Positions 10,013 through 56,399 are shown, numbered from the stretch's first letter. The stretch: DNA of 64,000 bases from Rhizaria sp. SCN 62-66 (GCA_001724265.1 MEDY01000002.1:124001-188000), one strand, 5' to 3'. The notes: generated from the letters alone by a model not told the origin. Program-made: numbers and translations.

Positions 10013-10440
10013 TTACTCAAAGTCAAACTCGTAATCAACGTCTTCTTCAACAACATCATCGTTCTTCGCTACAGCACCAGTGTTTGTCGGACCACCAACA
10101 GCACTCTTCTTAGCGGTCTCAGGCGCAGCTGCGGGGAGTGTAGATGCAGTGACCGTGGGCAGGAACGAGTTGGTGTAAGTGTCCGTGTAAGTACCCGCAG
10201 CGTTGAAGCCGCCAACGTTGTTGTTGCTATTCGTGTCATCCAAGAACATGTTATCAGCGGTGATATCGACGGCGTTGTTTACGTGAGCGCTCGCAGTACC
10301 AGGGACGGCGACAGCAGCAAAATTTGCAGCAATATCATTCACCTTGTTGCTGCCATTGTTGTTGTCAAGTGAAGGAATGGCGTCCTCGATATCTTCCTCT
10401 TCAAACGCGCTGAGACGGTCACGTTGCTCACGGTCACTCA

Positions 10441-10471
<31 letters not shown>

Positions 10472-13400
10472 GTCACGCTCACTGGGCGCGTTGTTGTTGT
10501 TCGTGTTGTTCGTGGGCGTAGCAGCGGCGTAACGATCGAACGAGAACGACGTCCCCTCCTTCCAGTCAGGAGCAACGACCGGGGCAGCGCCAGCAGCAAC
10601 AACGTTGGCGTTATTGTCAATGTTGTTCTCAGTAGGAGTGTCGTTGAGCTGCTGCTGATTGGGGAATATAGACAAATAGTCGTAACCATTGGCATCGTCG
10701 ACATTTGCGTTGTACAGCGCAGAAATGCCACTTGTGACGGCAGCGTTGGTGTTGATCTTGTCCTCGTTCACAGCGTTGACGTTCTGGGTGTTCGCGTTGT
10801 TGTAGTAATCATCGTCGTCGTCAACGTACCCGCCAGGGCCAACAACACCGGCATTGACATTAACGCCGTCATCAGCGTTATCCTGAGCAGCAACAGCAGC
10901 GACAGCAGCGGGAGTCACATCGGTGTTGTCGGCAGCAGCATTTGCGTGAAAATACGTGGTGATGGGAGGTGCACTGAGCAGACTTGCATAGTAGCCACCG
11001 TCGTCATCATCATTCGTGGGGTCGGCGGCGGCGGCAGCGCCAGCGCCATGACTGTTGTTGTTCTCGTCATCATAGCCTTCGCTGGCAGCCCCAGCCTCGG
11101 CAGCCTTGTTGGTGTCGTCGAGCTCAATCTCGATATCAGCACTGTCATTGTGGTGGTTATTGCCGATAAGACTCTCGACAGCATCCTCAGCATCATCGGC
11201 CTTCATAACAGAGGCCTTCGCGTTGTTATCAGCGTAGCTCGGCAGGATACTCGGGTCAATGTCCGTCGCTGCAGCCACGGCCTCAGCCGTCACTGCGTAC
11301 ATGTTGGCCTTCGCAGCGATGCGCGCAGACAGGGAAAGCGGGTTCGTGCGAGAGTCGTCAAACTCGGCATCGTTCTCATGCTCAGGAACAGTGCCAGCAA
11401 CCGCACCAGTGGCAGCCTCGGGAACAACATCGAAATCAGCGATGTTCACAGCGTTTTCATGAGCGCTGCCCTGTTGCTGACCCAAGTGGAGAGCGTTGTA
11501 CGTCGCTGCAGCGTCACACTCCTCACCGCCGCCACCAATGCGCTTAGATTGCGCGTTAGAGGCACAGTTTTGCTCGGGCTATTCAGGTCCGTACACGTCC
11601 AAGTACGCCTGCATAACAGCGTGATGCGTTGCCTTCATCACGTGCTCAATCCGCGCACGCTTCGCCGCATCAGCGCCTTGAGGCTTGGCCGCATCCGCGT
11701 TGTCAGCAGCACCAGTCCTCGCCTCAGTGGCTGGAGCGGCAGCAACGTTATCAGCGTTGCCAGTGATGTTGGCGCTGATGTCGACAGTGCTCTCACCATA
11801 GTTCGAGTTTCGACTCTCCTCAGCGTCGGCATCGGCATCGGCCTCGGTCACAGTTGCACTCGCGGTCGCAGCTGCAGTGACTGGCACAGGCGCAGCGCCC
11901 TCAAAGCTCAGGTTCACATCGTTGTTGTTGTTGTTGTTGTTGTTGTTGACATGCACACCCGGTGCAGTGTTCTTGCTGGCTAGGTCACTGTTCATGGGAG
12001 ACGGGGTCTTGTTCGGCATCCGCACAGGCAACGCACTGACACCAGCGGCGTTGTTGCTGGCGACAAAGTCGTCGTCGTTGGCACCGACATCGACGTTGTT
12101 CATCGCAACATTGCCGGTGATTGGCACTGCGGGGGGAGCAGCGAACGAGTCGGCGTCAACAAAACCGACTGAATACGAGTTATTCGCAACGTTTACAGCG
12201 TTGAAACCCCCATGGTTCGAATTCGCCGCTGCGGAAGCGGGGACATGAGCAGGGACAGCAGCAGCAGAAGCAGAAGCAGAAGCAGGGGCAGAGATCAAGA
12301 CGGGCTCAGGAGCAGGAGTGGCAGCCGCAGTCATCAGCGTTGCGATGGGACTGCTGGTGTCGCCAGCCCCCTTACCAAGTTCTAAGTACCCCTTACCTGC
12401 ATCTAAGTGTTCGTCATCGTCGTCATGACGCCCGTCGTGGACGCAAGCAGTGATCGGGGACGGTGACGGCGACGGCACGGCGGAGACACCCTTAGACTTC
12501 TCGCCATCATCCTTAGAGCTGGACGGTTGTTGCTGCTCGACAACACCCTTGGATTGGGTGAGGGTCTGCGTGGGGTTCCGGCTGATGCTCACAGTCACCT
12601 CCCCGGTCCCGGGGACGATCGCGGCGCTCACAGTCGCTGCAGGCACCGGGACAGGCGCAGGGACCGGAGCCGACACCGGCACAGCGTTGCAGTACTGTTG
12701 CATAGAAGCGTTAGTCGCGAAGTTGTTGTTGACAGTCAGCGCAGTGTTGCTCACAGTCACCTGATTACCAACGACGCTCGGCACTGGCTGTTGTTGTTGC
12801 TGCTGTAGTTGTTGGAGTGCTTGTTGTGCAACGGCAGAGTGCGGTGGCAGCGTCATCGCGCCGTAAGTCAAGCCGCCGTCCTGTCCGAAATTCAAGCCAC
12901 CCGCGGGCCGCGCCGCGCGAGGCGGGCTCTGGGGCGGCTGCAGCGGGGCGGGGGGCGCGACGGGCAGCCCGCCGCTGTAGCCGTGCCCAGGGTGACCGTG
13001 GGCAGGCGCGGGGGCGAGGAATGACACAGGGTAGTATTGCTGCTGTTGCTGCTGCTGATGCTGATGCTGTTGCTGACGATGCTGAAGCTACAGTTGCTGT
13101 TGTTGAGGATAGTGAGGCTGTTGTTGCTGCAGGTAAGGACCTTGTTGCTGAGCGTAAGGGTACTGCTGTTGTTGGTACTGTTGCTGTTGAAAATAACCCT
13201 GAGCATTGTACGGAAGATTGTTGTTATTGTTGGGAGGCACCGCGTTTTGCACTGTTTGGTTCACAATGGCGGCAAACCACCCCGCGGGCACAGCCAGCCT
13301 TCCTTCACTGCACATATCCCCCGCGTGCCCCGAGGCGTTCGCAGCGGCAGTGGCCGCGGCGTTCGCAGCGGCAGTGGTCGCGGCGGTGTGGCTCACGACG

Positions 13401-16400
13401 CCGCCGTTCATCGGCGCTGCCATCAGCACGGACCGTGCCAATCCCTCCGCCGCCTCGGCCTTGGCGGCCGCCAGCGCGGGCCCGCGGATCGCGGCCGCTG
13501 CCACGCGCGCGTCCGCTGCCACCGCCGCAGCGGCGATGGTCGACAGCGCGGGCGCGAGCGTGTAGCGCGACGACGACAGCGCGGCGGCCTGGCTGTGCGC
13601 GGACACGAGGTAGTCGGGCGTGGTCGCGGCGGTCACTGCCATGGTGGCAGACGCTTTGTTCGTACCCGCAGCGTTGCTGGAGTTCGCCGCAGCGCCGCTC
13701 TCGCTGGAGAAGGGTGCACGGGGTGGCGGTGTTGAAGGCGGGAAAAACGCCCCCGCAGCAGCGGCAGCAGCAGCATCGACGGTCTTAGCATTGTGAGTGC
13801 TGTGAGCGTTCGCGTTAGTGTTGGCGTTCGTGGTTCTAGAGAGTAGAGGTGACGTGAGCACGACAGCGGCGACCGCATCATCCATCCTGCTCGCAGGCGG
13901 CGGCTTAACTTCCGCAGCGGGCGGCGTGACTTCGTCGACGCTAAAGTCGGTCTCAGCGCTCGCGCTGGTATCAGCGTCGAACACAGAGCGCAGCTGCTGC
14001 TGCGGTTGTTGCTGATGTTGCTTCTTCACAGCGCTGCGACTGTACCGCTGCAGCGAAGCCTGCGTGTGCGGATGCTGAGCACCAGTGACGGCGTTGCTTG
14101 CATCTGCGCCTGAGCCGTATAGAGGATGTTGCTGCGCGTATAAACTGTTGCGGTTCACTCCGGCAGCGACCAACGGCGGCACCGCAGTGTTCATCTGCGA
14201 CTGCAGCTGCTGCATCGCCTCGTTCAGCGCCGCCTGCAGCCGCTGCACCTTTTCCTCAGCGGCGCGCGCCCGCTCACTCGCCTTGCCGGCGGCCTCGTCG
14301 GCGGCGGCGCGCGCCTCGGCCCGGCCGTCCTCGCGCGCGCGCGTCACTTCGTTGCGGTGAGCCGCCTCAGTCGCCATCACGGCGCGCGCCGCCGCCGCGT
14401 CCGCGGTCGCAGTCGCGATCTCGGCCGCGGCCTTGACTTCGGCGGCAAACCGCGTCTTGAGTGGGGTAAGCTGTGCGCGCAGGTCGTCGACCTCGAGTTT
14501 GCTGTTCTCGAGCGCGGCGATGGCTTCCCGCACACGCCCGCGCTCGGCCGAGATGTCCTGCGACAACTCCGCGCACCGGTCCCCGAGCGACTTGACCTCC
14601 AGCAGCAGCCCGTCGCGCTGAGCCAGCACCTGGGCCAGCTCCCGGCTCGCCACGCCTGCCCGCGCGCGCGCCTCCGCGGCCTCGATCTCGGCCTCGGCAC
14701 GGCCACCGGCGCGGGCATCAGACACCGCGGCCGCCAGCGCGGCGCGCTCGTTCGCCAGCGTCGCCCGCTCTTGCTCAAGCACCGCGCGCGTCTTCTCGAG
14801 CGCGATTTTTTCGGTCCTGAGCGCGCGTTCGGCTTCGTCGCTGCGCTGGCGCGCGTCTTCCTCGCGCCGCAGCGACGCGGCGCGCGCCTCGGAGAGCGAC
14901 GACCGCTCGAGAAAGCGCTCGTGCTCGTGCTGACGGCGCAGCTGCGCGAGCTCGTCCATGGACCGGTTGTGCGCCTCGCGCGCCTTGGTTAGCTCGGCGG
15001 CCTTGTCACTCTCGAGCTCGCGGCGGAGGTGCGCCAGCTGCTTGTTGAAATCGAGCCGCGCCTCGGCGGCGGCGGCGGCGAGCTTGGTGCGCTCGATGTT
15101 GGCCACGCGGGCCGCCACCTCTGCGTCGGCCTTGGCCGAGAGCTCGCGCTGAAGCCGCAGCAGACGCAGCTCAAAGTTGGCCCCCGTGTCGCTGTTGTCG
15201 CCGTCCGCGGCGGCCTTTTGCTGTTGCAGAGTCGCCTCCGCGCGCTCCGACAGCTGCCTCAGGCGGGTCTCGAGGGAGCCGGCGGGCGGCAAGAGGGTCA
15301 ATAAGTCGTCAGTGCTGGTAGAGACTGTCGTAGTGACTGTGGGGGCCGCGGGCTGCGCGGAGAAGCTCTTGCAAATGACCGTGAGCAGCGAACTGCCTGA
15401 ACTCTGCTGCTGCTGCTGCTGCTGCTGATGTTGCTGTTGCTGCTGAGAGGGACTTAGATTGCTCAGGATGAAAGACTGCGCGGGGGTAAGAACAGGCACG
15501 GCTTGCGAGCCGCCGACGTGGTCGGGATCTAAGTGTCCCGCCGCCGCGGCTGTAAGAGCCTCCTTAGACGCTGCGGAGGACGTAACTGGCACGATATCAA
15601 GCACTTTGACTATGTCGGTTTCAGACAGAGAGTGGGGGCCCAGCTCCTGAGTGCGGGACTCAGGGATGAACACAGAGAGCGCCTTCAAGTACCCCTTAGA
15701 CCGCAAATGGGCCGCGATAAGCGCATTCATCGCCCGGTCGCACAGAGGACTCTCGATAACCGTGCTGTTACTGCCGCTAGCGCCGCCGCCGACCATCGCG
15801 ACAGTGCCAGCGCCAGTGCTACAGCTGCCAGCGCCAGTGTTACTCAAAGCGGGGGCTGCGGTGCCAGATAGATGCGCGCGCGCCTGCTGCTGCTGATACT
15901 GCTGCTGGTAGTGTTCCTGCGTCGCGTTCACAGGCAGTGCGGCTGAGGTCGTTAACATCGGGTTCGCGGTGACGTGAGAGACAACTTTTTGCCGCAAATG
16001 GGCTGTGAGATCGTTCGAGTGGCCGGCGCTCTTCAACGCTGATAGAAGCGCGGTCGTCATCTCAGTCGCAGACATTGTCGCGGGAGCAGCAGCGGGAGCA
16101 GGCCGCGCGGCGCCAGTCGCAGGTCGAGCCGCAGCAGAGCCAGAGCCAGCGGACGAGGCTGCGTTTGCGCTCAAGCTAGCGCGAATGTTAGCCACGGCGG
16201 TCGGATTGGGACGGGGCCTGGCGGCGGAGGCAGAAGTCTGAGAAGACGCCAGTGGGGCGGATGGGTACGGAATCGGCAAGGGGAATGCGCCGGCCGCGCC
16301 AGGACCGGCGGCGGCGCCGGTGGGGAAAGCAGAGGCGCCGTGAGCTGCACTGGGGTTGCTCGAACCGCGTGAGGCCGCAGGAGAAGGGCCCGCTGGAAGC

Positions 16401-16414
16401 CACTGGTGCGACAT
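10013..16414 (-). CDS. OFD1: OFD1-like centriole/basal-body LisH coiled-coil protein. Single exon, 2133 aa if the in-frame TAGs at 13090-13088 and 11581-11579 are read through (1108 aa if TAG is a stop)
   Basis: Ordered OFD1-like blocks: LSALKSAGHSNDLTAHLRQKVVSHV, LisH AMNALIAAHLRSKGYLKALSVFIPES, SLETRLRQL, FELRLLRLQREL...EARLDFNKQL, then a long coiled coil. Track ORFs 13088-16414, 11579-13027 and 10013-11485 share one frame and are separated only by single TAGs. The frame ends in TAA at the switch to AT-rich DNA. Confidence 0.85.
11579..11581 (-). other. In-frame TAG, putatively recoded (context YGPE*PEQNC)
   Basis: CCT GAA TAG CCC GAG CAA gives the repeat PEQPEQ if TAG=Gln. The frame stays open for 521 more sense codons. 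Confidence 0.75.
13088..13090 (-). other. In-frame TAG, putatively recoded (context QQQQL*LQHRQQQHQHQQQ)
   Basis: TAG lies inside a CAG/CAA-rich tract, with no intron-like sequence around it. Confidence 0.75.
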
Positions 16415-20440: not shown

Positions 20441-23400
20441 ATGGGTTGTATCCAATCGAAAGAGGATGGCAACGCTCCGACCCGCCGCCGCCCCCAGTCG
20501 AACACCGCTGGCGACGCTCCCGGTGACGGTGACGGCAACACGCAGCACGGCTTGGCCCCCAACTCACCCAGACACGCGGGTGACACCGCAGGTGACGCCG
20601 CTGCCGCGCGCTACAAGGTCTCCGCCCCTGGTGCGGGGAACGGTGCGAATGACGGTGTTGATGTTGAGGCAGAGGCAGCTGATGTTGTGACGTCGCTGTC
20701 GCCCGCGAACCACAGCCACAGCGGCAAAGACGGTTCTGCTGGCGGCGGTGGCACGGACGTTGTGCTCATGGCTGACGGCGACGGCGACAAAGCTGCTGCC
20801 GGTGCAGAGCTGACTGACCGGACACACAAGCAACGCGTCAGCACGAGTACTGGCGTGGGGTCTGCTGCGACTGCTGCTCACGGCTACGGCCACGGGCGCA
20901 CCCAGCTACCTGGCCAAGCCGACGACGACGATGACGGTGACGACTACAACGCGAACAAAGCTCTCAACACGAGCGCTGCTCTCGCAAACAACAACAGCAC
21001 CAACAACATGCCACCGGCGGGGGGTTCCCCAGGACACAGCAGTCACGCCTTAGCCTCTGGCTCCGCTGCGGGCGGCGCGGGCACGAACCGCACGCACACG
21101 AACTCAAGCAACAACAACAGCAACAGCAACAACGCCAACAACGCGAATGCTGCTGGGGCTTCGCCTGTCGCCGCCGGTGGCCAAACGCCTAACCAAAGCA
21201 ACACCAGCAGCCAGCGCCACTTAGCGAACAACAACACCAACGCCAACGCTGCTGCTGCTGGTGCCGCGAACCCCGCCGCTGTGGTCGCGGCCGCCGCGGT
21301 GGGCAACACGCCCCGCGGCCCTGTCACGGCCTCTGCACTGGCGCTGGGCAAAGCCGCGTATAACCCGGCCCCCGTGCCGCACCTCGTCGACCCCCACACT
21401 GCCGCCGGGCTTGACGGCGCGCATGGGCCCGTGTTTGACAGCAACGGCTTCATCATCGGATACAACCCGCCCGTGGGCGACGCGGCCGCGGTGGCTGAGG
21501 ACATTGCCGCCCGGTACATGTCGTTCCTGAAGCAGTCCCGCCGCAACCTCATCTCCCCCAACGGCGACGGCGAGCATAACAACGGCGACAACGGCCACGG
21601 CAACAACGACGATGACGACGACGATGATGACGACGATGACGTGCTCAGCGGTCTCATTGTCGCTGCCCCCTCGGCCATCCTCCCGCTCAAATCCGCCGCC
21701 GCCGCGCTCGCGTTCGCCGCCAACAGCAACAACCCAGCGTACGCACAGTACCGCAACAGCTTCGTCGCGGCCGCCGCGCGTATGTCGATCGCGGCCCCGG
21801 CCTCGGAGGCCTACCGCATCCCCTCCGAGGCCGCCGGTGACCCCCACACGATGCTGCTCGCCGCGGTCCATGCCGCCGCCGCCGCCCGTCGCGCGCGGCC
21901 CGACCTGGACCGGCTGCCTGCGTTCCGCGGCGAGGCGCTCGACGCGCGCGGCTACCCGGCGGGGCAGACCGAGGCCCCGCGGCCCACGTGTGAGGTCGCG
22001 CTGGCGGCCCGCATCCGCGTGCTGTTCCAGTCGCACTCGCGCAAGGTCGCGCGCGCCGTCGCGGCGGCCACGGCGGCCACGGGCGCGGCGGGGGCCGCGG
22101 GTGCTGTCGTCGCCGCGGCTGCTGTAGCTGCGGCGGAGCGGATGGCGCCGCATCTGCTGTGCTGCGGGCAGACGGACGCCGAGGTCGAGGCCGGGGTGTG
22201 TCCGTGTGTCGGCAAGTGTGAGCAATGCACTGGCGCGGGCGGTGTTGTGTGTTCCCGTCCCCCCGCGTCCGTGGTTTCGGTCAACAACGTCACACTTACG
22301 ACCACGACCTCTGGTAGCAACAATAACAACAACAACAACAACAACAGCAACAGCGGTGACAACAGCAACAGCAACGAGGACGAGGACGAGGACGACGACG
22401 AAGAGGAAGAGGAGACCGACGGCAGCGTCGTCTCCAAGCGCTTCGCCGCCGCCGCCGCCGCGCTAGTGACCAAGGGCCTTCACGGCCAGCTCGTCACGTA
22501 TCGCATGCTCGAGACACTCGGTCTGACGCCTGTGGCGCCCGTGTTGTTGTCGTCGATCCAGACAACGAACAACATCAACGGCGCCGCTCTGCTCCTGCAG
22601 CAGCAGCAGCAGGTGACGGCGAGCCCCAGCCCCGCCAGCGGTGCGCATGGCCACTTTGCCGCCCAGCAGCAGCTGCACATGCAGCCCCGTCCGCTGCCGC
22701 CGCCGCCCTCGCCTCCTCAAGCCACCGCCACTATCACCTCAACTGCGGCAGCGGCTGCGGCTGCGCCTGGGAAGAAGATGCATAGCGCGAGCAGCAAGCA
22801 AGAGTGCCGCCGCGCCGCCGGCGACCGCCGCAGCTCCAGCTCCAGCGACAATGGCGGCGGCAGCGGCATCGGCGCTCTGTGGGACGACCATGACGACGAT
22901 GATATTTTGCTCGCGGCTGAGCTCCAGTCGTCGCCGTCACGGCACATCGTCGTCGCCGCCGCCGACGGACAGCAGCTGCTCTCCCCGCATCAGCAGGGCC
23001 AGGGCCAGGCGCTGTCGGCGCTGCAGGGCAGCAAGAGCGGCGACGCTGCACTGCTCAACCAGTCATTCTTCGGTCCCGGCGCCGGTGCGTGCGGTGCGCC
23101 GTCGACACAACCGGCGTCGGCGGTGAGCTCGAGCCGGTACATGCACAACAACACCATCAACACGGGCAGCCAGCACGGCGGCTACAACAACAACACCGCC
23201 GGCACCAGCCCGAACATCGCAGACACGAGCAGCAGTCGCTGCAGCAGTAGTAACATCAACGCCATCAGTCTCCCCAGCGTCAGCATCCCGAACCTCGGCA
23301 TGAACAACAGCAACAACAACAGCAGCAACAACAACACTAATAACTGCATGGCGGTGGTTGGCGTCACGACCCCGGCCTCTCAGCTGCACCACCTCCCCTC

Positions 23401-36208: not shown

Positions 36209-36232
36209 TGTCTGTCTGTCTGTATGTCTGTT

Positions 36233-36299
<67 letters not shown>

Positions 36300-36305
36300 A
36301 TGTCT
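36209..36305. repeat. (TGTC)n tetranucleotide microsatellite with TGTT/TGTA variants
   Basis: Directly visible tandem array of about 24 units. Confidence 0.95.
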
Positions 36306-40829: not shown

Positions 40830-40871
<42 letters not shown>

Positions 40872-42055: not shown

Positions 42056-42094
<39 letters not shown>

Positions 42095-42686
42095 CCAGCC
42101 TCAGCAGCAGTCTCAGTCTCAGCAGCAGCAGAACCAGGCTCAGTTTCAGCCTCAGCCTCAGCAATACCAGCAGCAGCTTTATCAACAGCAGCAGCAACAA
42201 CAATACCCTGGATTCCTACCTGCCCCTGAGACCGGGCCCCCTTTACAGAACGGACCCTTACATTCTCAGTCTAAGAGCCCTGCTGCTATGAAGCCTCTCC
42301 GCAGCAAACGTGGCGGTTCAAACACGAACAATGATGACGATGGCGGAAATGATGGGTTTGGTAACCTGGTACTTAAGTCCGAGTACTTACATTCCCCGGA
42401 CGCGTCGCGGGTACTTACACCGCGTGACCTCCCGCAAAACACTTACCCTGCGTCCAACAACAACATCAACAACAATAACAGCAACGTGAACGCTCGTCCT
42501 CATCAACAGCAGCAGCAGCACCAACAGTATCCTCAGCAACCGCAGCAGCAGCAACATTACCAGCCTTTGCAGTCACAGTTGCAGTTGCAACCGGGTCTTG
42601 TTCGCACTGGTGCTGAATCCTTAGTGCCGCACACGTACAGCTCTAAGGCTGGGGGTACTTACATTCACCCTGGCTGGCAGCAAGCA

Positions 42687-42717
<31 letters not shown>

Positions 42718-44053
42718 GGCCGTCTCAGCCTCAACCTTCGATCAATAGTGGTGATTTTGGCAGTGACCACGACAACGGCAACAACGGTAACGGTAACGAC
42801 TGGCAATTTGCCAGTTTGCCCGACAGCGCCCGCGACGCGCAGACCGACACGCATAATGCACAGTCTGTTTCTCGCCCGCAAGGCTCTGTTAGTGCTGCTG
42901 CTGCTGCTACTGCGGCTGCGGCTCCTGGTGATGTTTCGTCGCATTTACGCTTGCTCAAGGCCCGTAACCCCTCTGCCCGCGCCCGCAACAGCAGCAGCAA
43001 CAACAATGACTCTACTAAAAACACCGCTAGCGCTGCACAACAACAACAGCAGCAGCAACAGCAACAGCGGTTTGTAAATAACAATGCTAACATCGAGGCC
43101 GACAGTCTCGCTGGCTTTGGCAGTAGCTCGAGCGATGCGTTCACGAATGTAAAGGGTACTTACATCGGCGGCAATGACTCTGGAGCTGAAGTATTCCTGC
43201 CTGGTCCGGACGCGATCTCGCGCAACCCCACAGGTACCGGTGCACGTGAGGGCGCGAGCCCCTTAGACGGGGGTCTAAGTACCCACTTAGCCAGCGTCGA
43301 GCTCGGCCCTGAGTTCTCACAGGCGCGCTCGGCTCTCCGCGGCTTCACCCATCCCAATAGTACCGAGGCGGGGGACACGGGCGGCGCTTCTCATAGTAAG
43401 GAGGCGGGAGACGGCTGGTTTGCGAGAATGGAGGCTGAGCTTGGTCAGAGGCAAGATGAGTTGGTTGACATCACCCAGTCACGCCAGCAGCAACAACAAC
43501 AACAACAGCAGCAGCTGCAGCAACAGCAGCAGCTGCAACAACAGTTGCAAGAACTGCAGCAACAGCAGCAACAGCAACAGCTTCAGTTGCAACAGTTACA
43601 ACAACAGCAGCAGCAGTCGTTCACTGCTTCTGGCACGATGACTGATCCTAACGCAGCTAACTCTAACAACTTTGATAATGCCAATATCAACACCAACAGC
43701 AACAACGACACTAGCGTTCATGGCGGCAGTGGCAGTGGCAGTGGTAGTTACCTCGGTGTTGTGGTGCCGGCCACCGCAGCTATTGCGTTCAACCGCCCTC
43801 GCGTCAGTCTCCTTGACGACAACGATATGGACAATAACAACAACACCGCTATCACTGCTACGGCCCCCACTGTTCCGGTTCCGAAAAATGTCATCCCGGA
43901 GGAAGACGATGACATTAGTGCAATTTCGGACGTCGACGCTGATGCTCACAACGCCCACAACAAAGGCGGGCGCGGGCTCAACCTCAACAGTGGAGGTGAT
44001 ACTGACGATGACAACTTGTTCAACGACTTACGCGACCTCGGTCACAACACTGA

Positions 44054-44098
<45 letters not shown>

Positions 44099-45200
44099 TG
44101 CTGAGGCGGCTGAGGCGGCTGAGGCTGAGGCCAGGGCACTGGAAGCGAAGGCTCGGGCTGATGCCGAGAGGGACGAGGAGGAGAAGCAGCGTCACCTTTG
44201 CGCGCTCGCACTCGCATTGGCAACGCCGTTGCCGCCGACGCCGAGGCTGACTTCGGCGACGCCGGTGCCTGGGTACCCTCCGCCGCTGCCCACCCCTCGC
44301 ACCTCGGCCGCCGCCGCCGCCGCCGCTGCCGCCGCCGCCGCTGCTGCTGCTGATGCGGAGGCTGAGGCCAAGGCCAAGGCTGAGGCTGAGGCCAAGGCTA
44401 AAGCTGAAGCTGAGGCTGCTGCCGCCGCCGCCGCTGCTATTGCTGCTGCCGCTGCTGCTGCCGCGAGTGCGCCGGCCCCGCCGCCGCGGCCGCCATCGAG
44501 GGTCGCCCCCGTCCCGCAGCCACAGCCGGCGCCGCCGCCACCACCGCTGCGCGCGGGGCCAGCGAGTCTGTTCGACCAGATCATCATCGTTGCACCGACC
44601 GGCCCCATAGTATTCCCCCCGCCTTGCTTCGCCCCCACTCTCCTCTCGGGCAATATCAACGCCAACAGCGGTAGCGCGAGTGCGGGCAACGTCAATGCGA
44701 GTGTGAGGTTCGGGTGTAATAGTGACCGCGAGTTCATCTCCTTCAACAGCACCACCACGACGGACAGCAGCGCTAACAACTCAGCTGCGAGTGCCGGTTC
44801 TAATAAGGCGGGTGACGGTGAGCAGCCGGTGGGGTACTTACACGATAAGCCGCCCCCTTACGCGACTCCGTTCTTACCTCCGAATCACAGCAACCAAAGT
44901 AGCCCTCTTGCAGCAGCTGCTGCTACTACTAATAACAATAATAGCACTTTGCCCTCGTTTGCTGACTATGCACAGTGGCCTGTGCCGGCGTCCATCACGT
45001 TCAAGTACCCCTTACACTCCCCGTGCGGCTTAACTTCCGACGACCTGCTGCCGTTCATCCTGCCCCCCTTACCCGTGCCCTTAGACAATAACTACAGCGA
45101 GTTAGCTCCCAGTGCTATTAGGGCGCCCACGGTCACTGCCGCGCTCACGGTCAAGGCCGTGCTAGCCCCTTACACACCTCTAAGTATCACATCTAGCGCT

Positions 45201-45231
<31 letters not shown>

Positions 45232-48200
45232 CTGGTTTAGCGGAGAATGTAAGTACCCCCTTACAGCACGCGAACACGAGTGGACTCGAAGCCAGTCTCC
45301 CCTCAAACAACTCTAATGGTTCGAACGCGACGGCAACGACGACTGCTCCGACTGTCATCAATCCTCGTTTCGCCGTCTCATCTCCCGGCGGCGGCGGCTT
45401 AACTTTATCCCGCGCCGAAGCCTCCGCCTACAGCGAAAGCCACGCCCTGACCCCGGCGTCCGGGCTGCTGCTCTTCACTGGGCCGTACCCGCACAAACAG
45501 CGGTCCGCCACGGGCAGTTGGTGCTGGATGGCACGCGCCCCCCGCGGCCGCGGCGCCTCCAGGGTCGGGCTTGGCGCCGGCGGCGCGCTCGGCGACGCGG
45601 TGTACGGCTTAACTTTAGTGGCGTACCAAAAACTCGCAGTGACCAACACACACGCACACGCGAGTGCGAGTTCGAATGTAAGTACCCCTCAGACGCAGAC
45701 GCAGAGCGGTGTGACTGCCGATGACTGGCGCAGCGACGCGTGTGTGCGTGCGACGTCCGTTCTCGCCCCGCGGCTACTCACGGTCACGAGCCGTTACCCG
45801 TTCTTTCCGCTCATGTGGGGTGTGTTACAGGTCATTTCGGCGCACTTACACGCCGCTGACGTTGTGAAGAATCTAAATACCTTGCTGTTTAGTGTCGCTG
45901 CCGCAGCAGCGCAGTCGCCGCTGCAGACCGGGGTACTTACATCGGCGGCGCAAGTACTTACATCGAACAGCAGCAGTGGGCCGGGTGTGCCTGCGAGGCC
46001 CTCTAGCCGTAATGGCAGCGTGACCCGTTTAAGTGCCCAGGCCCCGGGAAGTGCTTCCTTCGCCGCCGGTGAGCCCGACTCCCCCCGGTATGCGCCGCCG
46101 CCGATTGACCCCACAACAGCAGCGATCACTGCAGCCGCCTCCGCCGCCGCCGCTGCTGCCACCGGCAACGCCAACCCTAGCGCTCACCATAGTGCGACCA
46201 CAGCGATGGTGCCGTATATCGCTGCCTGTGTTGTGAACACCGCGGGCTCCCCTGTGAGTTCCGGTCCGAGTTATAACCACACGGGGTTTCAGTATGTTGG
46301 CCCGGGCCAAGAGGAGGCTGCGGCTGCGGCAGAGACGAGCTACACGTGCCCTCTCTCCAACGAAGCCACGACGTACGTTCAAAACAATATCAAACAAACT
46401 TCAACTATATTTCACCCTTAATGTCGGTAATTCACGCTTGATTCGAGTAAAAAGCTACTTTTAATGGTAAAATCACGTCTTGATCCAATTCAGCTCTATT
46501 TTTACGTTTACCCCCTTAATTTTATATCTCTTTTTTTGAGTGTATTGTTGCTCTTCCTCTTGTTCCTGTTCCCTCTTTCTTAGTCCCACGGACATGCCAC
46601 AGCTGTTGCGCTTCATCGCACTCGCCTGCAGCCAGGCCGTGCCGTCCGCCGGCTACTCTCTGTCGCTGCCGCTGCCCCCAGTGCCGAGTTTGCCCGCCAG
46701 ACTGGCAGCCAGGCTCCGCGCCTCCTTGCCTCTCCCCCCCGCTTCTCCCTCGAACTCCAACAACAATAACCTTAGCACCAACAATACCAATATCAATACT
46801 AACGGATATTACGGCAATAACGTGGGTGGGAATGCTATTTTGGTGAGTACCCGTGCCGGTACGCCTAGCGTCGCCCGCGCCACCCCGACCCCCTTAGTCG
46901 GTAGTCTAAGTGCCCCCTTAGAACCGCTGTACCCTCTAAGCACCCGCCGCACCGCCTCCCTACCCGCGCGGCCTCTGCTGCTTCTCGCCCGCGGGACCCC
47001 CTTGCCGCCCGCGTCGCGCCGCCGCTGGCACGCACTCCTGCCGCTCAGTGCCGGTACTTACTCCCACGGCCTCCGCCTGACGCTGGCTCCGGTCACCGGC
47101 GCCGGACTCGGCTCGGGCGCGGCGGCCGCGGGGACGCCCGCTGCGGCCGCGGGCGCGGGCGAGGTCGCGGCGGCGCTGACCGAGCTGTACACGCCACCTG
47201 TCCTGGCGGCCGCAGTGCCTGCTGCGAGGGCCGGAGCCGTGACGCCCGCGCCGCCGCCGCACATGCTTGGCCTGGGCGCGAACTGCAACAATTACAACAG
47301 CGTCGTCACGGTCACGGGCACGGGTACCGGTAACGCGGGTGCGGGCGATGCTGCCGCGGTCACGGGGAACCAAGCAGCCCCCATAGGTTCCATGGGTTCC
47401 ATTGGCGGCGGCGCGAGTTCTGTCTCTGGCTCTGGCTCTGGCTTCGTTTCAAGTAGTGTAGATACGGTGTGCTACCTTACTTACACGCGTCCGGCGATCC
47501 CGGTCCTGTTCGGTCTAGTTAAGCCGCACCCCAGCATCCACCCCCCTTACATGACGCTCGCGCACACCCTTACACTGTCTGCGACGGCGGGGTGCCCACA
47601 GTCGCCCCACCCTGAGGCGCGCATTATCCCCTTAGATTCCGCTCTAAGTACCCCAGATGGCGGGAGCGCCAGCGGTTCTGCGTATTATAGCCCGGCTTAC
47701 GCACGCGCGCTGCAGCTATTGCGTGGGCTCTGGCTGCGGAAGCATCACCAGCAGCTACGCGAGCAAATCAACCCCGGTCTGAGCAACAACGGGGGGATCG
47801 GGAATAATATGCTCTTGCAGCAGCAGCTGCAGCAGCAGCAACAGCATCAGCTTCAGCAGCAGCAGTTTGGTGGCGGCGGCAACGGACTTGGTTTCAGTGG
47901 CAGCAGCAACAACTTGCTTATGAACAACGCTGCTTTGATGAGAAGCAATAACAATAACGCCCTCAACGCTCAGTACACCGCGTTGCTTTCACACCACCAG
48001 CATGCTTTGCAACAACAGCAGCAGCTGCAGCAGCAACAACAGATGCTCGCGATGCAGGGACAACAGCGTGGAGGTACTTACAACGCTTACTTGCCGTCGT
48101 CCGGTTTGCTCGACGCGTCCACTCTAAGTACCCTCCAGGGCCTTACTCCTCAAGAGGCCGTTCCTCGCTTGCTCATGCTTCTGCAGGCCAACGGTAGCGG

Positions 48201-51200
48201 CATCAACAGCAACATGATGATGGGCAATAATAATAATACCGCATTCCCCGGGTCCGATTTTTTCGGTCCCCTGCTTCCTCCGCCCGCGCCGCACCAAACT
48301 GGTCTCCCGTTCCCCACCAGCAGTCACGCGTACCGGCCGCGCTCGCGCACCCATGCTCCCAACAACACCACCAGCGGCGGCGCCTCGGTGACCGTGGGCA
48401 CCATGGGTACCGGGGGTGGTATCTCTGGCCTCGGGGCTGGTTTCGCTTTGATGCCAGCCTCCGCGGCCTCCGCCGCCGCGCTGTCAGCGCCTGGACTGTG
48501 CGCTGTTGCCGACCTCGCCAGCGCCGCTTCGCTCGAGGCGGCTTACATTCTCGCACAGTGGTGCGCGCCCGCGGCCTGGGGCGCCGGCCAGGACCTGCCT
48601 GCGCTGACGGCGCCGCCCGCGCCGCTGCCGCGCCTGCTGCCGACGGGCGGGGCCGTTGTTGTGGTCCCCGCGGCGGCGGTGTTGCGCGGCGACGGCGTCT
48701 ACCTGCTGTCTGTGCGCGCGGTCGGGGCGCGGCTGCGAGTCAAGTCGACGCTCATGGACGTGATCTCGTGCTCGTCGGGCTCCACCGTGGTGGAGGATCC
48801 GCCGACGATGTCCACGATGCAGCGGAAGCCGGTCAACAAGGCGCTCAGTACCACCACCAACGCGCTCGCGAACGCGCTGCTGTACGACAGCCCGTACTAC
48901 GACGACGCCACCGCCAACAACAACAACAGTGACAACGACTACTTCTCCACAGCGAACGGCGGCGCTAGCAGTCATACGATTGTGGGACTGACTGGCGCGG
49001 AGTTTTTCGGTCCCGCGAATCGCCATTTGTCGTTACTGACGGTCACGGCACCGGGCATTCGCCCCGCACGGCCCCCCGCGCCTCTGAACAACAGGTACGT
49101 TCCACTGTAATCTGACAACAAATTTAAGATTAGCTGGATATTTTCTAACTGAATGAAGTATTTGCTTTTGATTTGATGTTTCATATTTCATATCTTATTT
49201 TTGTTTTGTCAATGCACATCTTGAGGTATATTCAAACAATGTTGTTTTCCAGCCGCTTACACTTCAATCTCTGCCCTCATGTGCTTCGTATTTCAACCAA
49301 CTCATCACCCGCAGTTCTTCGAGGCGCCGCAGCGACTTTTTCGGTCCATCCGCGGCCACCCCTCTGGCGCAGAGTCCCCCCGCGCCCTTGTCCATCGCCA
49401 GCAACACCAACACTGGCACCGCCGCGGGCTCCGTGTTCATCGTCGGGACGACGCTCGCAGCGGCGGGCGCTGCCTCGGCGGCGGCTGGATGCGCCCCGAT
49501 CCACTTACAAACCGGTCTAAGTACCACGCCCGGCGTAAGTACCCCCGCGGTGAGTGTGAGTTTTGCGGTTTGCGCAGCGTACGGCTTCCTCGCCGCCCCG
49601 GCCGGCGGATGCTATGGCCGGACGCCCGCGGCCGCGGTGGCCGCCCGCCGCGCCCGGCTGCTGCAGTTAAACACGCTGCTGTACTCACACCAGCAGCAGC
49701 TTTCGTACCATTCCCAGCAGCAGCAGCAGCAACAGCAGCTGCAGTATCAACAACAACAGCAGCAGCAGGTTCTATGGCAAACTCCTTCTCAACAGCATCC
49801 GTCACAGCAACAGCAACCGGGACAGTTACAGGGACAGACTGTTTACGGCGCCAGCGACGGCTCTCCCGACCCCTTACCCGCCTTACTCTCTCTCGCCCAA
49901 CCCTATTCCCCCGCCGTCGCCGCCCTTCTCATCGCGTCCCACCCGCCTCTGCTGCTCGCCACAGCCACGGCCACTCTCCCGGCCCTTGCCACCGCCATCG
50001 CTACCGAACGCACTGCACTCGCCCGTGCGCGGTCGCGCTTAGATGCCGTCGAAGGGAAGATCTTTTCGGTCCTTGACACCTCCACCGCGGCTTTGCGCGA
50101 GGCGGGTGTGGTTTTACCCAGTATGTCCGTCGCAAGCCCATACGATTCCTCGGATAGCGGCTTAACTTCAGGAGCGAAGGGCGGCCTAACTTCCGCGCCA
50201 GGCAGCTTGACTTCCGCGCAAGATGCGATGTTACGCCGCCACGCGCGCGCCCGGTTTGAGAGCCGTGTTGTTGCGCTGTTGTTACACGGTTTAGACGTCA
50301 AGGAGTCGTATTTAGCACAACAACAAGCGACTGTCGTGCAACTAGCACTGACACTGGGCGGATTGGCGCAGGAGTTTGCTGTGACAATGGAGAACTATGA
50401 TTACAGCATTACAACTCTAAGTACTGCCTCCACGCAGCAGCCTTTGCCTGGTGTAAGTGGGAATGCCACACGTTTAGCTGGCGGAGTCATCCCGCCTGTC
50501 CCCTTAGCTGCCCAGAAGGCCGGCTATATCCAACAACAGCAACAACAGCAACAGCAACAATACGCTGGTGGTTTGCGCCCCCCCGTGCCCCTTGGCGCGA
50601 GCGTAAACACGGCCAGCAGCTCCGGCGGCGGCGTTCACGCCTTGTCACAGGCGCAGTTGCAGCAGTTGTCGCAGCTCCAGCAGCAGCGCCACTCCGCGGC
50701 CGCGCACTTCGCGTCTCTGGCGGCCGGAGCGCGCGCCGAGGCCGTCCGCACGCAGTTGGAGAACGATGCGGTGCTGCTGCGGCACGGGCGCGCGGCTGAG
50801 GGGGAGCTGGCTGCGCTGGCGGCCGCGGCCGGCTGGGCCACAGTCATCACGAGCAAGAGCTCGAGCGCGAGTACCAGAGGTACCGGCGGTACCACCGGTG
50901 CATGTGGCCCCTCGACTGCCGCCTGTACCGATGCGGTGAGTGCTGAGGTCGTGGTGTTGGATACCTCGGCGTTCTTTCCAGCGGCACAGAACAACGCGCA
51001 TAGCACAGCGCTCGTTGTTGCCAGTAGCAGTCGCCCCAGCACTCCGCGCATCGGCCCTGGCGCCGACCCTGGCGCTGCCGCTCTCAATAACCCTGCGAGT
51101 AGCAGTGGCGCGCCCGGCAACGGGTCTGTCGCGCCGCCGCCGATTCCGACGACGCCGCGCCGCACCAGCGTTGTTGCTGCGGCCGGCGCGAACTTTAACT

Positions 51201-54200
51201 TGAGCCGCTCTCAGACCCCGAGCAGCAGCAGCAGCAGCTCACAAGGACAGGGACCGGGGCAGTTGTCGCAGTCGCAAGTGCTGACGATTGCCCCAGGGGC
51301 TCTGATCCCTGGTGTGTCACCGACGGACCCCTGCGGCTTAATTTCCCTTTTGCTGTCCCCACATGGCACTCTCCCCGGTACGCGCACAGTGTCGTTCGTT
51401 GTCTCGAAACAAAACATCAATTGAAACTGAGTCATGATACCAACTATTTGATCTTTACCCGATTATATTATACTTCGCTCTCACGTTATCTCTCATTAAT
51501 TTTCTTTTTGTTTTTATGAAAATAGGTCAATTTTCATCGGCCGCAGCCTCTGCTTCCATGGCCGCCGCTGCCGCCGGTTACTACCCCAATCTGGCCACAA
51601 ACACTATCACCATCCCCGGCGGCCGCGCCACTCCGCTTGCCTACGCCCCAGCGCCCCCGGTTCCCACCGCAGCCCGGCCGTCCCTCTCCGCCGGAGCGGC
51701 AGGCGGCTTAACTTCCGTGGAGACCCCCGGATTAACTTCCGGTTCCGACGCCTCGCCGGCTGTTGTGGTGAGCAGCGAGGTTGCTCTCAGCACGCTTAAG
51801 GCAGGCACACTGGTTGATTTGCTCGAATACGCGCTTTTAGAGTTCAAGATTATCATTTACGACCCATCGCCGCAAATCGCTTCGGCGGCCGCTTTGTCTT
51901 TATTGCCGCTGTTGCAGCCGTTCGACTGGGAATGCCCGTTTCTGCCGCTCCTGCCCGCCGCGCTTCACACGGCGCTCGACTCCCCGGTCCCCGTGATCGC
52001 CGGTATCACGACGCTGCCAAGCTGGCTGCGCGGCCCGACTGATTTGCCGCTCGACACTGTGCTGTGGCTGCCGTCGCAGGGCCACGCACTGTGGGTGAAT
52101 CCGTACTTGCACTCGCGCACAGCTGGGCACACGTTGCTCCGCTCACGCTCCACTCTCCACGCCGCCGCCAACAACAACAACAGCAGCAACGCTGCGAGTA
52201 GTGGGAATAGCAACAACAGCAGCATTGCGAGCGCGATGCAGAAGCTTCCCCCTGAGCTGGGCACCGGCCTGGTCGGTGACGTCAACGACGACGTGTACGA
52301 CGCCGCCACGGCCCGTATCATCACCCCTACTCTGCCGCTGCGGCGCCGTCTGCTGGCTCTGCTGCAGCCGCTTGTGGCCGAGCTCGCGCGCGCCGCCGCG
52401 GGCGCCGCCGCCGCCGCTGACGCGCAGGCGGCGTGGGCGCTGGCCACTGACGCGGGTGCGGGAAGTCAGGTCGAGGCGGCCTTTCTCGCCGAGACCGCCT
52501 GGGCCCGCTCCGGCGCCAGCGCTGGCGGCGCGGGCACGCCGACGACGAGCACGGCCATGAGCGGCCTCACTGCGACAGCGGCCGACGCCGACGCCGCCGC
52601 CGCCACGGCCACGACCACGGCTGCCGCGCACGCCGCTGGCGTGCTGGATTACGACTTCGTGTACCGGTCACTCCTCGCGCACTACGGCGCGCTGTACACG
52701 GGCGCGGCGACGGCGACGACGACTACCGCCACGGGCCGCCTCTCGCCCTTCACGCCCACGGCCGCATACGTCGCCGCTGTAGATGCAATCACGGCGTGCG
52801 TCAACGGGTATCTCCTCGCGCTGGCGCTGCATTCGACGCGCACTGTCGTCGCCAACTCGATGGCGCTACACCAGGCGCTGTCCCCGGCCGCCTCCGCCGC
52901 CGCAGCAGCCGCTGCCGCCGCGAGCAGCAGCGCGGGCGCGGGTGGCATGTTTGGCATCTCGTTCAGCGGCGGCGGCGGCAGCGGCATTGGCGGCGGTTTT
53001 GCGACTCCCCAAGCGCGGCTAGACTTTCTGCACGCGCAGCTCGCGCGCGAGGATAAGCTGCGTCTTGCCGCAGCCTGCCAAGTGCTACCTGCCCTACACG
53101 CGCTCATCACCGGTGGACCCCTGGCCGGCCCGCCGCCGCCGCTGCCTGCGTTGCTGGCCCCGCTGCCAGTCGCGGTCTCCGCGGCGACCGCGGCTGGCGG
53201 GCTGGCCGTTGCGCCGCCGCAGTATTCGGCACTCACGCGTCCCCGTCTCGCGCGCGGCTTATCTTCCGCGGCAGGGAGCGGCTTGCCTTCCGACGGCGCC
53301 GCACGCTCGCCCTCGCTGCTCTCGCGCGGCAAATCCTGGGTGAAGAATCTGTTCTCTCCCTCCCGTAGCCGCCCCACGGCCGCAGACGCCGCGGCGACGG
53401 CGGCGGGCGCCGGTGTGCGCGTCGCCAGTGAAGTCACCGCGGCAGTGCCACGGGGCGCGCTGGTGCACCCCCTCGCGGCGGCGGCGCGGCTGCGGTGTGT
53501 GCCGTTCGCGGCTGACCCGGACCTTTCCGGCCTCAGCGCCGGCGCAGAAACTGGAGGGGGGAGCACCCCCTCCAGCTCTGGCTCTACTAGTGCGGTGAAT
53601 GGGTACCGTTTGCTCACGGCCGCCCCGTCGCGGTCGCTGATGCCGCTGCTGACCTCGGGGCTCGCCGCCGCCGCCGCGGCCGCCGCCAGCGCCACCGTGG
53701 CTTCCGGCCGGCCCGTCGCCGCGTCCCCGCTGGCGCTGACCCACGGGGACGACATGACGCTCGACGCTCTCTGCGCACCGCCGCTGTCCGCAGAGACCGT
53801 GGTGACCTCCCTGTTGCCACCACATTGGCCGCCGCTGCCGTCGGTCACCCCGCCGGCCTCCGCCTCCACCGCGGCGTCAGCGGCGGCAAACGCGGCGAGC
53901 GCCAGCGGCAGTGGCAACGGCAGCGGGGACGTGGACGCGTCTGCCGCGCTGGCGCCGCTGCCGCCCCAGTGCGACCTCGCGCTGCTGTCCGATCCCGACC
54001 TGGCGCCCGCCGCGACCGGCGCCGCCGCCGTGGCTGCACTCTACCCCGTCACCGAGCTGCTCTCTCAGTGGTCATTCGACGCCGCCGCGCCGTCCTTCAC
54101 AGCCGGCGAGCGGCTTTTCCTCTTCAAGTTTCGCGAAAAGGGCCAGCTGTTCCCGCACTGGCTCGAGTCGGCCGCCCAGCGCGCCGCCGACCGTACCGCC

Positions 54201-56399
54201 GCACTCGCGGGCACGGGTCCCACCGCCGCCGCGGAAGTTAGGCCGCAGGACCGGTGGTGGGCAACGGGCGGGTGGGACTGCCGGGCTCCTCTTACCGCGG
54301 GCACTGGCGCCGGTGCGGCTCACGGTCACTTTGCACAGTCGTCGGTGGGACCCGGGGCGACGGCTTACGGCGCGGGCCCCGGGTTCGGCTGGCCCCTGCC
54401 CCGCGCGGCGGCGGCGACGCTGAATATGCAGTCCGCGGCGGCGCAGAGCTCGGTGCTCGAGACCCACCGCTACTGGGGTCGGCTGCAGGCGGCTGCGGTG
54501 GCGGCGGAGGCGGCGGCAGTTGCGGCGGGGCGCGGCGTTGGCGGCGCGGCGGCGGCGATGGTCGCTGCTGCTGCTGTGTATAATGACCCTTACGCTGGCA
54601 TTCCGCCCACAACGAGCGCGAACGCTTACGCCAGCGGCGCCGAGACCAATGCTGGTGCGAGTGCGAGTGAGAGTGTGAATATGAGCACGGGATTTGGTGT
54701 GCGTCCGATCAACATCCCCCTCGCGCCGACAGTGCAGCAGCAGCAACAACTGAACAAGCAGATGTCGCAGTCGCAGCTTGTCCTACTCAACCAGTCTCAG
54801 ACGCAGCCGAATGCGCAGACTGCCCAACCGCATCAGCAGCCGAGTGTGCACCAGAGTCTGAACCAGAGTAGCGCTCAGGGTAATTTGCTGCAGCACGCAT
54901 CCCCGTCTGCCAATAATAGCTTTGCGCTGGGCCACCCGGCTGCCCACGGTCAGTCGGCCGGCGCCGGCCTGTTCGATCAGCAGCTGGGCCATGGCCAGGA
55001 CGACTCGCTCGTGCTTGCGCCTGCGGGGCTGGCCCAGTGGTTGCCGTTCCTCAACTCCGCCTCGGCCTCGCCGGCCCCCGGCGCCAACAACGCGAACAAC
55101 AACAACAATAACGACAACAACAATGCCGCGATGCCGTTTGCGCTCGGCTCCATCCCCCAGGCGCAGTCGCAGGCCCAGCTGCAGTCCCACGCGCCGCCGC
55201 CAATGGCGCCTCCGCGGACGCCGGCGCGGCCGATGTCTGCCGCGGGCGGGCGCCGGCCGCCGCCGCCGGTGCCGCAGTCAGCGCAGAAGCCCGGTGGGAG
55301 CGCCAGTCAGTTCCAATTCCAGCCGTTGTTTCTGCAACAGCCGCAGCAACCGCAGCAGCAGGCACAGACCCAGTGGCAACAACAACAGCAATGGCTTCAG
55401 CAACAACAGCAACAACAACAGCAAGGTCAGCAACAGCAGCAGGCGCTGGCGCAGACACAGGGGCAAGCTGCACAGCAGTGGAATAACGACGCTGGCCTGT
55501 TACAGTCATTCTCGACCCCTTTCCTGCCCACAATCACCGCCACCTCTGCCGCCAACGCCTCTGCCGCGGGCCTCGCGCCGCACAGCTTCACCACAGCGTC
55601 CACTGCTGCGCCTGCCCACGGCCACTTCCCGACCCACGGTCAGTTCCCTGCAGGCGGCGCTCATGGTCAGTTTGGCGGCGGTGGGCATGTGCCGGCCGCA
55701 GCGACTGCCAGCAGCGCGGCGAACTCTGCGCCAAATACTGCCACTGCTGCTGCTGTTGTTGGCGCGAGTAGCGCTGACACGATGGCGGCATTGTTGCAGC
55801 AGCAACAGCAACAGCATCAAGCAGCGTTGGCGGCATCACAGGCGCAGTCGCAGGCTCAGCTTTACAACGCGAGCAGTAGCGACAATAACGCGTATCAGCT
55901 GCAGCAGTTACAGCAGCTGCAACGACAGCAGCAACAGCTCCCTCAGTCGTTCTCAGCGGGCCCCTTACATCCGAGCACAGCGAATCCCGGTCTAAGTAGC
56001 TCTCCGATGCCCGACGCGCGCGGCACTCCCGGTCTCGGCGGCGCCAATGCGCAGATGGATCCGGCGACCCTGGTGCAGATGCTGCAGCAACAGCAGCAGC
56101 TGATCATGCTGCAGATGCAGATTCAGCAGCAACAGCAACAGCAACAGCAGCAAGGGCATGAACAGCAGGCGAACAGGAATATTAACGCTTTTGACATGAT
56201 CTCACCTTCTAGCTTTGCGAACAGCGACGGTTACCAGCAGCCCCAGTTCTCTCAGTCGCAGCAGCAGCAACAGCAGTTGCAACAGCAGCAGCAGCAGTAC
56301 TTGCTGCGGTCACTGCCGCAGTCAACAGTCGCGTCTCCGGGCCCGAGTGAGAGCGGCCTGGGTATGTTCGGCGGCTATCCTGGCTACCCACAGATCTGA
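38652..56399 (+). CDS. DENN-domain protein (putative Rab GEF) with very large low-complexity insertions. 5722 aa with read-through of the TAG at 40782. Exons 38652-46372, 46584-49094, 49315-51377, 51526-56399
   Basis: uDENN-like LFDQIIIV, ITFKYP, LLPFILP, VYGLTL. cDENN APRLLTVTSRYPFF and LLEFKIIIY...LLPLLQPFDWECPFLPLLPAALHTALDSPVPVIAGI. dDENN-like FLFKFREKGQLFPHWLE. Three AT-rich GT-AG introns with matching phases (2,2,1). GCCATG start and TGA stop. Confidence 0.85.
40782..40784 (+). other. In-frame TAG, putatively recoded (context QQLQLHEY*RQATAMLQQKQQ)
   Basis: Joins ORFs 38415-40784 and 40800-46421, which share a frame and lie 15 nt apart, inside a Q-rich region. Confidence 0.7.

Follow-up and report, generated by a model that had tools for sequence, protein, structure and literature searches.

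Can UAG serve as an ordinary amino acid codon in nuclear genes in which UAA and UGA still end translation? The question is raised by a 64-kb stretch of DNA (MEDY01000002.1, positions 124001 to 188000, deposited as Rhizaria sp. SCN 62-66), which we refer to in its whole length as the window, and in which five in-frame TAG triplets interrupt three genes. The original prediction for this locus was that UAG is read there as glutamine (Gln). Based on our analysis, UAG would be a rare sense codon, probably for Gln, decoded by a CUA tRNA in combination with a weakened eRF1, and UAA and UGA would terminate; the evidence taken together tips modestly in favour of this explanation. Of the explanations considered, a sense UAG is plausible and accounts best for the data, and a changed genetic code is beyond proof from 64 kb.

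All five TAGs were recovered in frame, in the three genes and with the coordinates and peptide contexts that had been predicted. Two of them lie in a gene on the minus strand (10013..16414), here called the LisH gene, which is a single exon of 2133 codons ending with TAA at 10013-10015. TAG 13088..13090 (minus strand) is codon 1109 of this gene (context QQQQL*LQH, the asterisk marking the TAG) and TAG 11579..11581 (minus strand) is codon 1612 (YGPE*PEQ). Two more were found in a giant gene on the plus strand, whose exon 1 (20441..30638) starts with MGCIQSK and contains TAG 29711..29713 as codon 3091 (RVPM*PIQQQ) and TAG 29777..29779 as codon 3113 (QQKQQQ*KQEQ). A phase-matched intron of 154 nucleotides (30639..30792, GTATGT..TTTAG, GC content 0.36) separates it from exon 2 (30793..33467), which ends with TAA at 33465-33467, and the spliced product has 4290 amino acids. 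The fifth TAG, 40782..40784, is codon 711 (LQLHEY*RQAT) of a DENN gene, also on the plus strand, that has three introns and a spliced product of 5744 amino acids; its exons are located at 38652..46372, 46584..49098, 49253..51377 and 51526..56399, the last one ending with TGA at 56397-56399. Four of the five TAGs adjoin CAG/CAA repeats, and the TAG at 11579 is the only one in non-repetitive sequence.

Coding sequence continues past each of these TAGs, as was originally proposed. The 11 long coding frames of the window comprise 16,298 codons and contain five TAGs, with neither TAA nor TGA in frame, whereas their two off-frames contain 353 and 548 stops, so that a high GC content does not by itself account for the open frames. 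For the LisH gene the corresponding figures are 58 and 106 stops in the off-frames against two TAGs in frame. When TAG is read through, the adjoining frames fuse into open reading frames of 2152, 3433 and 2696 codons, and no frameshift was found across the 12,167 codons of the three TAG-containing gene models. We scored 100 codons before and after each TAG with a codon model that was trained on TAG-free genes only, and the same frame was favoured on both sides by 17-81 nats; codon usage downstream of the TAGs was equally coding-like as upstream. The GC content within 30 nucleotides on either side of the TAGs is 0.50-0.58, compared to 0.29-0.36 in the four modelled introns, and a TAG is therefore not a gene boundary. 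Moreover, the intron of the giant gene preserves the phase set upstream of its two TAGs, and the DENN domain (PF02141, E 2.6e-16, residues 107-191 of the frame 51438-56396), which is contained in exon 4, is downstream of TAG 40782 within the DENN gene model. The six visible gene ends are four TAA (10013, 17020, 33465 and 59417) and two TGA (9592 and 56397), with no TAG among them, in full agreement with the prediction.

The source DNA is a metagenome, and the organism is recurrent in wastewater, bioreactor and fuel-cell metagenomes. Bioreactor and wastewater runs contain 94-97% of the words sampled from the window, and a 2025 run from another study contains 61%, part of the window being present also in the poly(A) metatranscriptome of that same study. 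Runs X5 and X7-X11, with small shares of the sampled words, were excluded as evidence. Contigs from X2 and X3 cover 10484-11912 and 11959-13308 without a single difference and keep the TAGs at 11579 and 13088; these two were counted once, because they are identical records and may be one data set. A contig from a different study (X4) covers 11444-12341 and likewise keeps TAG 11579, while this strain differs from the window at four other positions in 20 kb (10860, 11721, 13020 and 20388, the last of which is within a 5' leader). With a 26-mer adjoining TAG 11579 a metagenome scan gave one sole contig, L001 (2302 bp) from a separately assembled JGI metagenome, which brings no new sequence and matches 11083-13384 at 100%, both TAGs included; a scan of prokaryote genome contigs with the 26-mer gave no match. 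In a poly(A) RNA library (X6) one contig, at 12890-13232, is collinear with the DNA and unspliced, keeps TAG 13088 and carries the local single-nucleotide polymorphism (SNP) at 13020, and contigs of this library were found also at 10133-10434, downstream of both TAGs of the LisH gene. TAGs 11579 and 13088 are real, and sequencing error is excluded for these two sites. Confirmation in other data was thus obtained for two of the predicted TAGs; those at 29711 and 29777 were within the 20-kb stretch used for contig mapping, had no covering piece listed and were counted neither way, and the one at 40782 was outside that stretch.

The interruption is visible also in public protein collections, in which the only record of the 2133-residue LisH product is its C-terminal fragment of 478 residues (P0121, recorded on two contigs), cut at TAG 11579 because gene callers using the standard code cut at TAG. 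The longer of these contigs has 70,629 bp, and the window thus makes up nearly all of it.

For the identity of the amino acid we relied on sequence context alone, because none of the five TAGs is in a Pfam-matched or otherwise alignable conserved position. A homologue search with 601 residues around TAG 11579, the TAG being entered as X, returned only the window's own 478-residue fragment (one match among 8000 candidates scored). To test the context, we trained a naive-Bayes model on the window proteins themselves, with the ten residues flanking a site as its input, and control sets were formed of five true sites of one residue each. Gln came first jointly over the five TAGs, 14.2 nats above leucine (Leu) and 16.1 above tyrosine (Tyr). 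With any of the 19 other residues, no more than 1 in 300 control sets attained this margin, and of 300 sets of true Gln sites the model assigned 280 to Gln. The result was driven by two sites in poly-Gln runs, and Gln was not clearly favoured at 11579 and 40782. As far as flanking residues can tell, the test shows that TAG occurs where Gln codons occur; it measures the neighbourhood of a codon and not its conservation.

By analogy with known cases, a sense meaning of UAG could be acquired as follows. A tRNA-Gln with the anticodon CUA would arise from tRNA-Gln(CUG) by one mutation and would compete with an eRF1 having weakened recognition of G at the third position, and CAG>TAG transitions would then become near-synonymous and hence persist. 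In the 16,298 codons there are 791 CAG, 241 CAA and 14 CGA, which makes UAG approximately 0.5% of the Gln-type codons (5 vs 1032 CAG and CAA), a rarity that would fit a young or inefficiently decoded reassignment. The TAGs are real, the same in independent samples, in frame and coding-scored on both flanks; translation across them, the amino acid, the tRNA and the change in eRF1 are what we infer from this pattern.

Codes of this kind have been described previously. In the fornicate Iotanema spirale UAG encodes Gln and UAA and UGA are stops (PMC5304391, PMC9161772). This organism has 204 in-frame UAGs in 126 genes, approximately 8% of its Gln codons and many of them at hyperconserved Gln positions, an eRF1 in which GTS is changed to GGS, and terminators that are UAA in 104, UGA in 15 and UAG in no cases; a CUA tRNA derived from tRNA-Gln(CUG), together with weakened recognition of UAG by eRF1, was proposed (PMC5304391). 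The window is similar in that UAG is the only stop codon in frame and would be a minority Gln codon, and in that, among only six gene ends, UAA is the commonest and UGA the second, with UAG at none. Two of the six features of an Iotanema-type code were thus observed here, namely the presence of UAG in frame in coding sequence, and the restriction of UAA and UGA to gene ends. In contrast to Iotanema, the organism of the window is GC-rich and free-living in sludge, and the sole hint of a link to fornicates is a 63% identical DYRK match to Carpediemonas. The rhizarian exLh (Sainouroidea) reads UAG as Leu and has UAA and UGA as stops, with 384 in-frame UAGs in 71 genes, Leu at 82 of 86 hyperconserved sites, and 56 UAA, 15 UGA and no UAG terminators (PMC5304391). 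It shares with the window a reassignment of UAG only, as proposed here, and a similar terminator pattern, and possibly the supergroup if the hint from the DYRK tree described below is right; however, UAG is rare in the window and its contexts favour Gln over Leu. Among phyllopharyngean ciliates, Hartmannula sinica and Trochilia petrani read UAG as Gln and prefer UAA as stop, three TARA ciliates read it as Leu, two of them having suppressor tRNA genes, and the reassigned UAG is widely used as a sense codon across the group (PMC11687900). Hartmannula and Trochilia would have the same code table as is proposed here, with UAA kept as stop, but they are ciliates, whereas the window has GT..AG introns of 148-211 nucleotides, GC-rich exons and no tRNA gene. 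Finally, in ambiguous codes of the Condylostoma or Blastocrithidia type a codon is both sense codon and 3' terminator; TAG is at none of the six terminators of the window, a sample too small to tell such a code apart.

The affiliation of the organism was studied with two of its proteins, DYRK and the glucosidase II beta subunit, whose best matches were scattered over Mataza, Carpediemonas, Saprolegnia, Closterium, Rigifila, Diphylleia and others. A FastTree phylogeny was built from the DYRK kinase domain and its 120 best matches. It grouped the window in a clade of 11 members (support 1.0), among which the cercozoan Mataza sp. D1 alone is named. With one gene, a single named taxon and best matches sampled without a root, the tree is a lead only towards a cercozoan placement. 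The protein atlas gave generic kinase clusters only. A thecofilosean such as Rhogostoma, which is common in treatment plants, would be one candidate. Among the literature entries listed, none reported a variant code for Rhogostoma, Thecofilosea, other Cercozoa (exLh aside) or eukaryotic metagenome-assembled genomes (MAGs) from wastewater.

For the glucosidase II beta subunit (6373-7446), a metagenome protein of 544 residues (P0122) stands out as much the closest relative, with 48-53% identity. It can be aligned to the window protein even in linker regions, and its open reading frame is uninterrupted at the position of an intron in the window. The protein probably belongs to a related lineage suitable for comparison, and relatives therefore exist in public data. 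We also searched for mis-binned contigs of this organism by means of (CAG)8 in prokaryote genome contigs; at least 120 loci were found, and of the seven inspected none bore a mark of the organism. For 81 of these at least 120 loci, the best tetranucleotide correlations to window exons were 0.61-0.50, compared to 0.57-0.79 among the window's own parts. One of the loci (L073, on a 5916-bp contig in a Hyphomonadaceae MAG) has an open reading frame of 1814 codons with N-terminal poly-Gln, to which reading through a TAG adds 77 codons; it looks like a eukaryotic retroelement that was mis-binned in a bacterial MAG, a part of it resembling an endonuclease by eye.

Several observations weigh against a sense UAG. 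The exclusive occurrence of TAG is weak evidence in sequence so rich in CAG: of random nonsense mutations, 62-69% would be TAG here, and five TAGs out of five have P = 0.09-0.16, for which reason this was dropped as a statistical argument. Zero TAGs among six terminators is too small a sample to inform, and, should the nonsense changes be recent, the open frames beyond them would not testify to selection. Neighbourhoods of the Gln type are equally expected for untranslated CAG>TAG alleles. A tRNA scan of the 64-kb window detected no tRNA genes and an Rfam scan gave no matches, and eRF1 is not among the genes of the window. With approximately 0.5% vs 8% of Gln codons, and no UAG at a conserved position, the window also departs from Iotanema. 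Three TAGs (29711, 29777 and 40782) had no confirmation in any listed independent contig, and the poly(A) RNA library may contain DNA. Of the proposal that UAG encodes Gln there stand, accordingly, real TAGs with coding sequence on both sides, the lack of in-frame TAA and TGA and Gln-type neighbourhoods, and there fall away the exclusivity of TAG and any support from a conserved position.

The main rival is tolerated near-cognate readthrough, in which the standard code applies, the TAGs are leaky premature stops at which tRNA-Gln(CUG) misreads UAG in Gln-rich messages, there is no suppressor tRNA, and UAG terminates elsewhere. We regard this as unlikely, though worth serious attention. In Saccharomyces cerevisiae, nonsense codons in a Gln-rich domain are read through with insertion of Gln, and the readthrough rises with the Gln codons in the mRNA and depends on a Q-stop-Q flank (PMC13192750). 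Similarly, the stops of the window are within Gln-rich low-complexity proteins, its coding frames are extremely Gln-rich, all five TAGs are in non-conserved low-complexity sequence and UAG would be very rare as a sense codon. However, the yeast cases are laboratory nonsense mutants of a standard-code organism, whereas the stops reported here are shared by natural populations over years, and none of the five has the Q-stop-Q flank (instead there are L*L, E*P, M*P, Q*K and Y*R, with Gln at -1 of the TAG at one site only). No RNA structure shared by the five sites was found in the 103 nucleotides from each TAG (z +1.38, -1.91, +1.39, -1.52 and -1.38), and a gene with two stops in succession would lose much of its product if readthrough were only partial. 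A C at +4 in four of the five cases was rejected as a signal: P was 0.016 against all codon first bases and 0.32 against the base following CAG/CAA, C following 59% of these codons. Also under the standard code, the TAGs could be truncating alleles. The low-complexity tails downstream would then be dispensable, only recently orphaned and not yet decayed; for the DENN gene it would be the sequence before the TAG that is left over, with translation restarting at an internal ATG. TAG is what most nonsense mutations would produce here, the sole family match of the LisH gene is upstream of its TAGs, and an in-frame ATG follows TAG 40782 after five codons, at which the DENN protein could begin. In addition, the three coding SNPs between the X4 strain and the window (LisH-gene codons 1132, 1565 and 1852, all downstream of TAG 13088, the first TAG of that gene) are without exception non-synonymous second-position changes (N>S, A>V, F>S), as would be seen in a tail that is under relaxed constraint and possibly untranslated, although three changes are few and such changes are also not unusual in disordered sequence. 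Nevertheless, and this is the weightiest argument for a sense UAG, this explanation would require fixed premature stops in three of seven adjacent genes, doubled in two of them, and the same stops in samples from several studies dated 2015-2025. Approximately 2.4% of substitutions create a stop, as estimated from nonsense-mutation weights, and for two orphaned tails each to gain a further neutral stop would therefore take approximately 1% neutral divergence, which should also have brought frameshifts or indels and some TAA or TGA; none was found in the 12,167 codons. The downstream codon usage is coding-like and RNA-library contigs cover downstream parts, and taken together we find truncating alleles quite improbable.

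We give very little credence to the TAGs being assembly errors in CAG-repeat regions, or being spliced out in small unrecognised introns. Sites adjoining repeats do cross-map reads of other organisms, with thousands of partial matches and spurious joints, GT and AG dinucleotides are plentiful near the sites (including GTCCCG just upstream of 29711), and three of the five sites are those lacking independent confirmation. Against this, two sites recur without change in Logan contigs from several runs and in the JGI assembly, the RNA-library contig across 13088 is unspliced, and the modelled introns, with 148-211 nucleotides and a GC content of 0.29-0.36, differ from the coding-scored surroundings of the TAGs. 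It seems equally far from probable that UAG is a sense codon for a residue other than Gln, either Leu as in exLh, or Tyr, Glu or Lys. The DYRK tree joins the window to the cercozoan Mataza sp. D1, and the one rhizarian known to reassign UAG reads Leu (PMC5304391); moreover, one site has the flanks L*L, and the context model had no clear preference for Gln at two sites. The joint preference for Gln over Leu and Tyr and the two sites inside poly-Gln runs argue otherwise, although a test of neighbourhood remains weak.

The window consists of GC-rich exons (third-position GC 0.62-0.88) and AT-rich introns and spacers, and the four modelled introns are GT..AG introns of 148-211 nucleotides. Seven genes were recognised, and abundant low-complexity runs of Gln, Asn, Ala and Ser characterise their proteins. 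In addition to the three TAG-containing genes there are a SAM/B-box gene that is truncated by the left end of the window, the glucosidase II beta-subunit gene on the plus strand with the end KDEL-TGA (TGA at 9592-9594), a CS-domain gene on the minus strand with its TAA terminator at 17020-17022, and a DYRK-type kinase gene on the minus strand, which has its TAA terminator at 59417-59419 and is truncated by the right end of the window. The AT-rich stretches at 33.5-38.3 kb and 56.4-59.4 kb were searched and yielded no convincing genes, and so no extra gene ends. Three further TAGs, passed through when TAG is taken as Gln, were rejected both as sense codons and as gene ends: the one at 3337, an apparent gene end, is within an AT-rich GT..AG intron, that at 16436 within a 5' leader and that at 30683 within an intron. 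Dispersed repeats, sought in the window as probes for further contigs, were low-complexity triplet repeats only. A (TGTC)n microsatellite of approximately 140 nucleotides (36173-36312) was observed in the spacer of 4.8 kb that separates the giant gene from the DENN gene and that is AT-rich and pyrimidine-skewed.

The LisH gene encodes a weak LisH match, a coiled coil and a long low-complexity tail. The label 'OFD1-like' that it had been given did not hold, its sole basis being a LisH_2 match with E 0.0011, under the Pfam cut-off. In the N-terminal part of this gene, at 15820-15825, the X2, X3 and X4 contigs omit 2, 2 and 1 bases at very high depths, and these omissions are probably due to low-complexity contigs from other organisms that cross-map here. 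The giant and DENN genes are adjacent (20441-33467 and 38652-56399), and their products of 4290 and 5744 residues are mostly low-complexity sequence of Ala, Asn, Gln, Ser and Thr. No Pfam family matched the giant product, and its MGC start is a possible N-terminal acylation signal. The introns of both genes had been predicted to be phase-matched, which was found for the intron of the giant gene and two of those in the DENN gene. The remaining DENN intron, the second in order (49095-49252), keeps the frame only if GTTCCA at 49099 is taken as its donor, on which the end of exon 2 at 49098 is based. GTACGT at 49095 looks more like a consensus donor but misses the phase of the sole good acceptor (TTTTCCAG, 49252) by one base. 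This could reflect an unusual donor, an alternative splice, or a 1-base assembly error near the C-run at approximately 49070.

Nuclear changes of UAG and not of UAA are rare, being described for Iotanema, the rhizarian exLh and a few phyllopharyngean ciliates in the literature consulted (PMC5304391, PMC11687900). Such UAG-only codes are of importance, as in them eRF1 and the tRNAs can distinguish UAG from UAA. The fullest picture that we can offer is that of an uncultured sludge protist, possibly a cercozoan, in an early and independent reassignment of UAG only to Gln, in which the use of UAG as a terminator would already be lost, a new tRNA-Gln(CUA) would decode UAG, and UAG would occupy approximately 0.5% of the Gln positions, mostly in fast-evolving, Gln-rich disordered regions; we propose it tentatively, as a real possibility that falls short of being probable. 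The recurrence of the organism in public metagenomes makes the claim directly testable from existing data. If true, this would be a further UAG-only case, probably of independent origin and notable for its very low usage of UAG, and if the organism is also rhizarian, it would be the second rhizarian reassignment of UAG, with a meaning other than the Leu of exLh. The case, if true, would also provide a rare view of codon capture under way in a GC-rich, Gln-rich genome, and a data point on how reassignment starts, by loss of the terminator followed by slow CAG>TAG capture or by ambiguous decoding.

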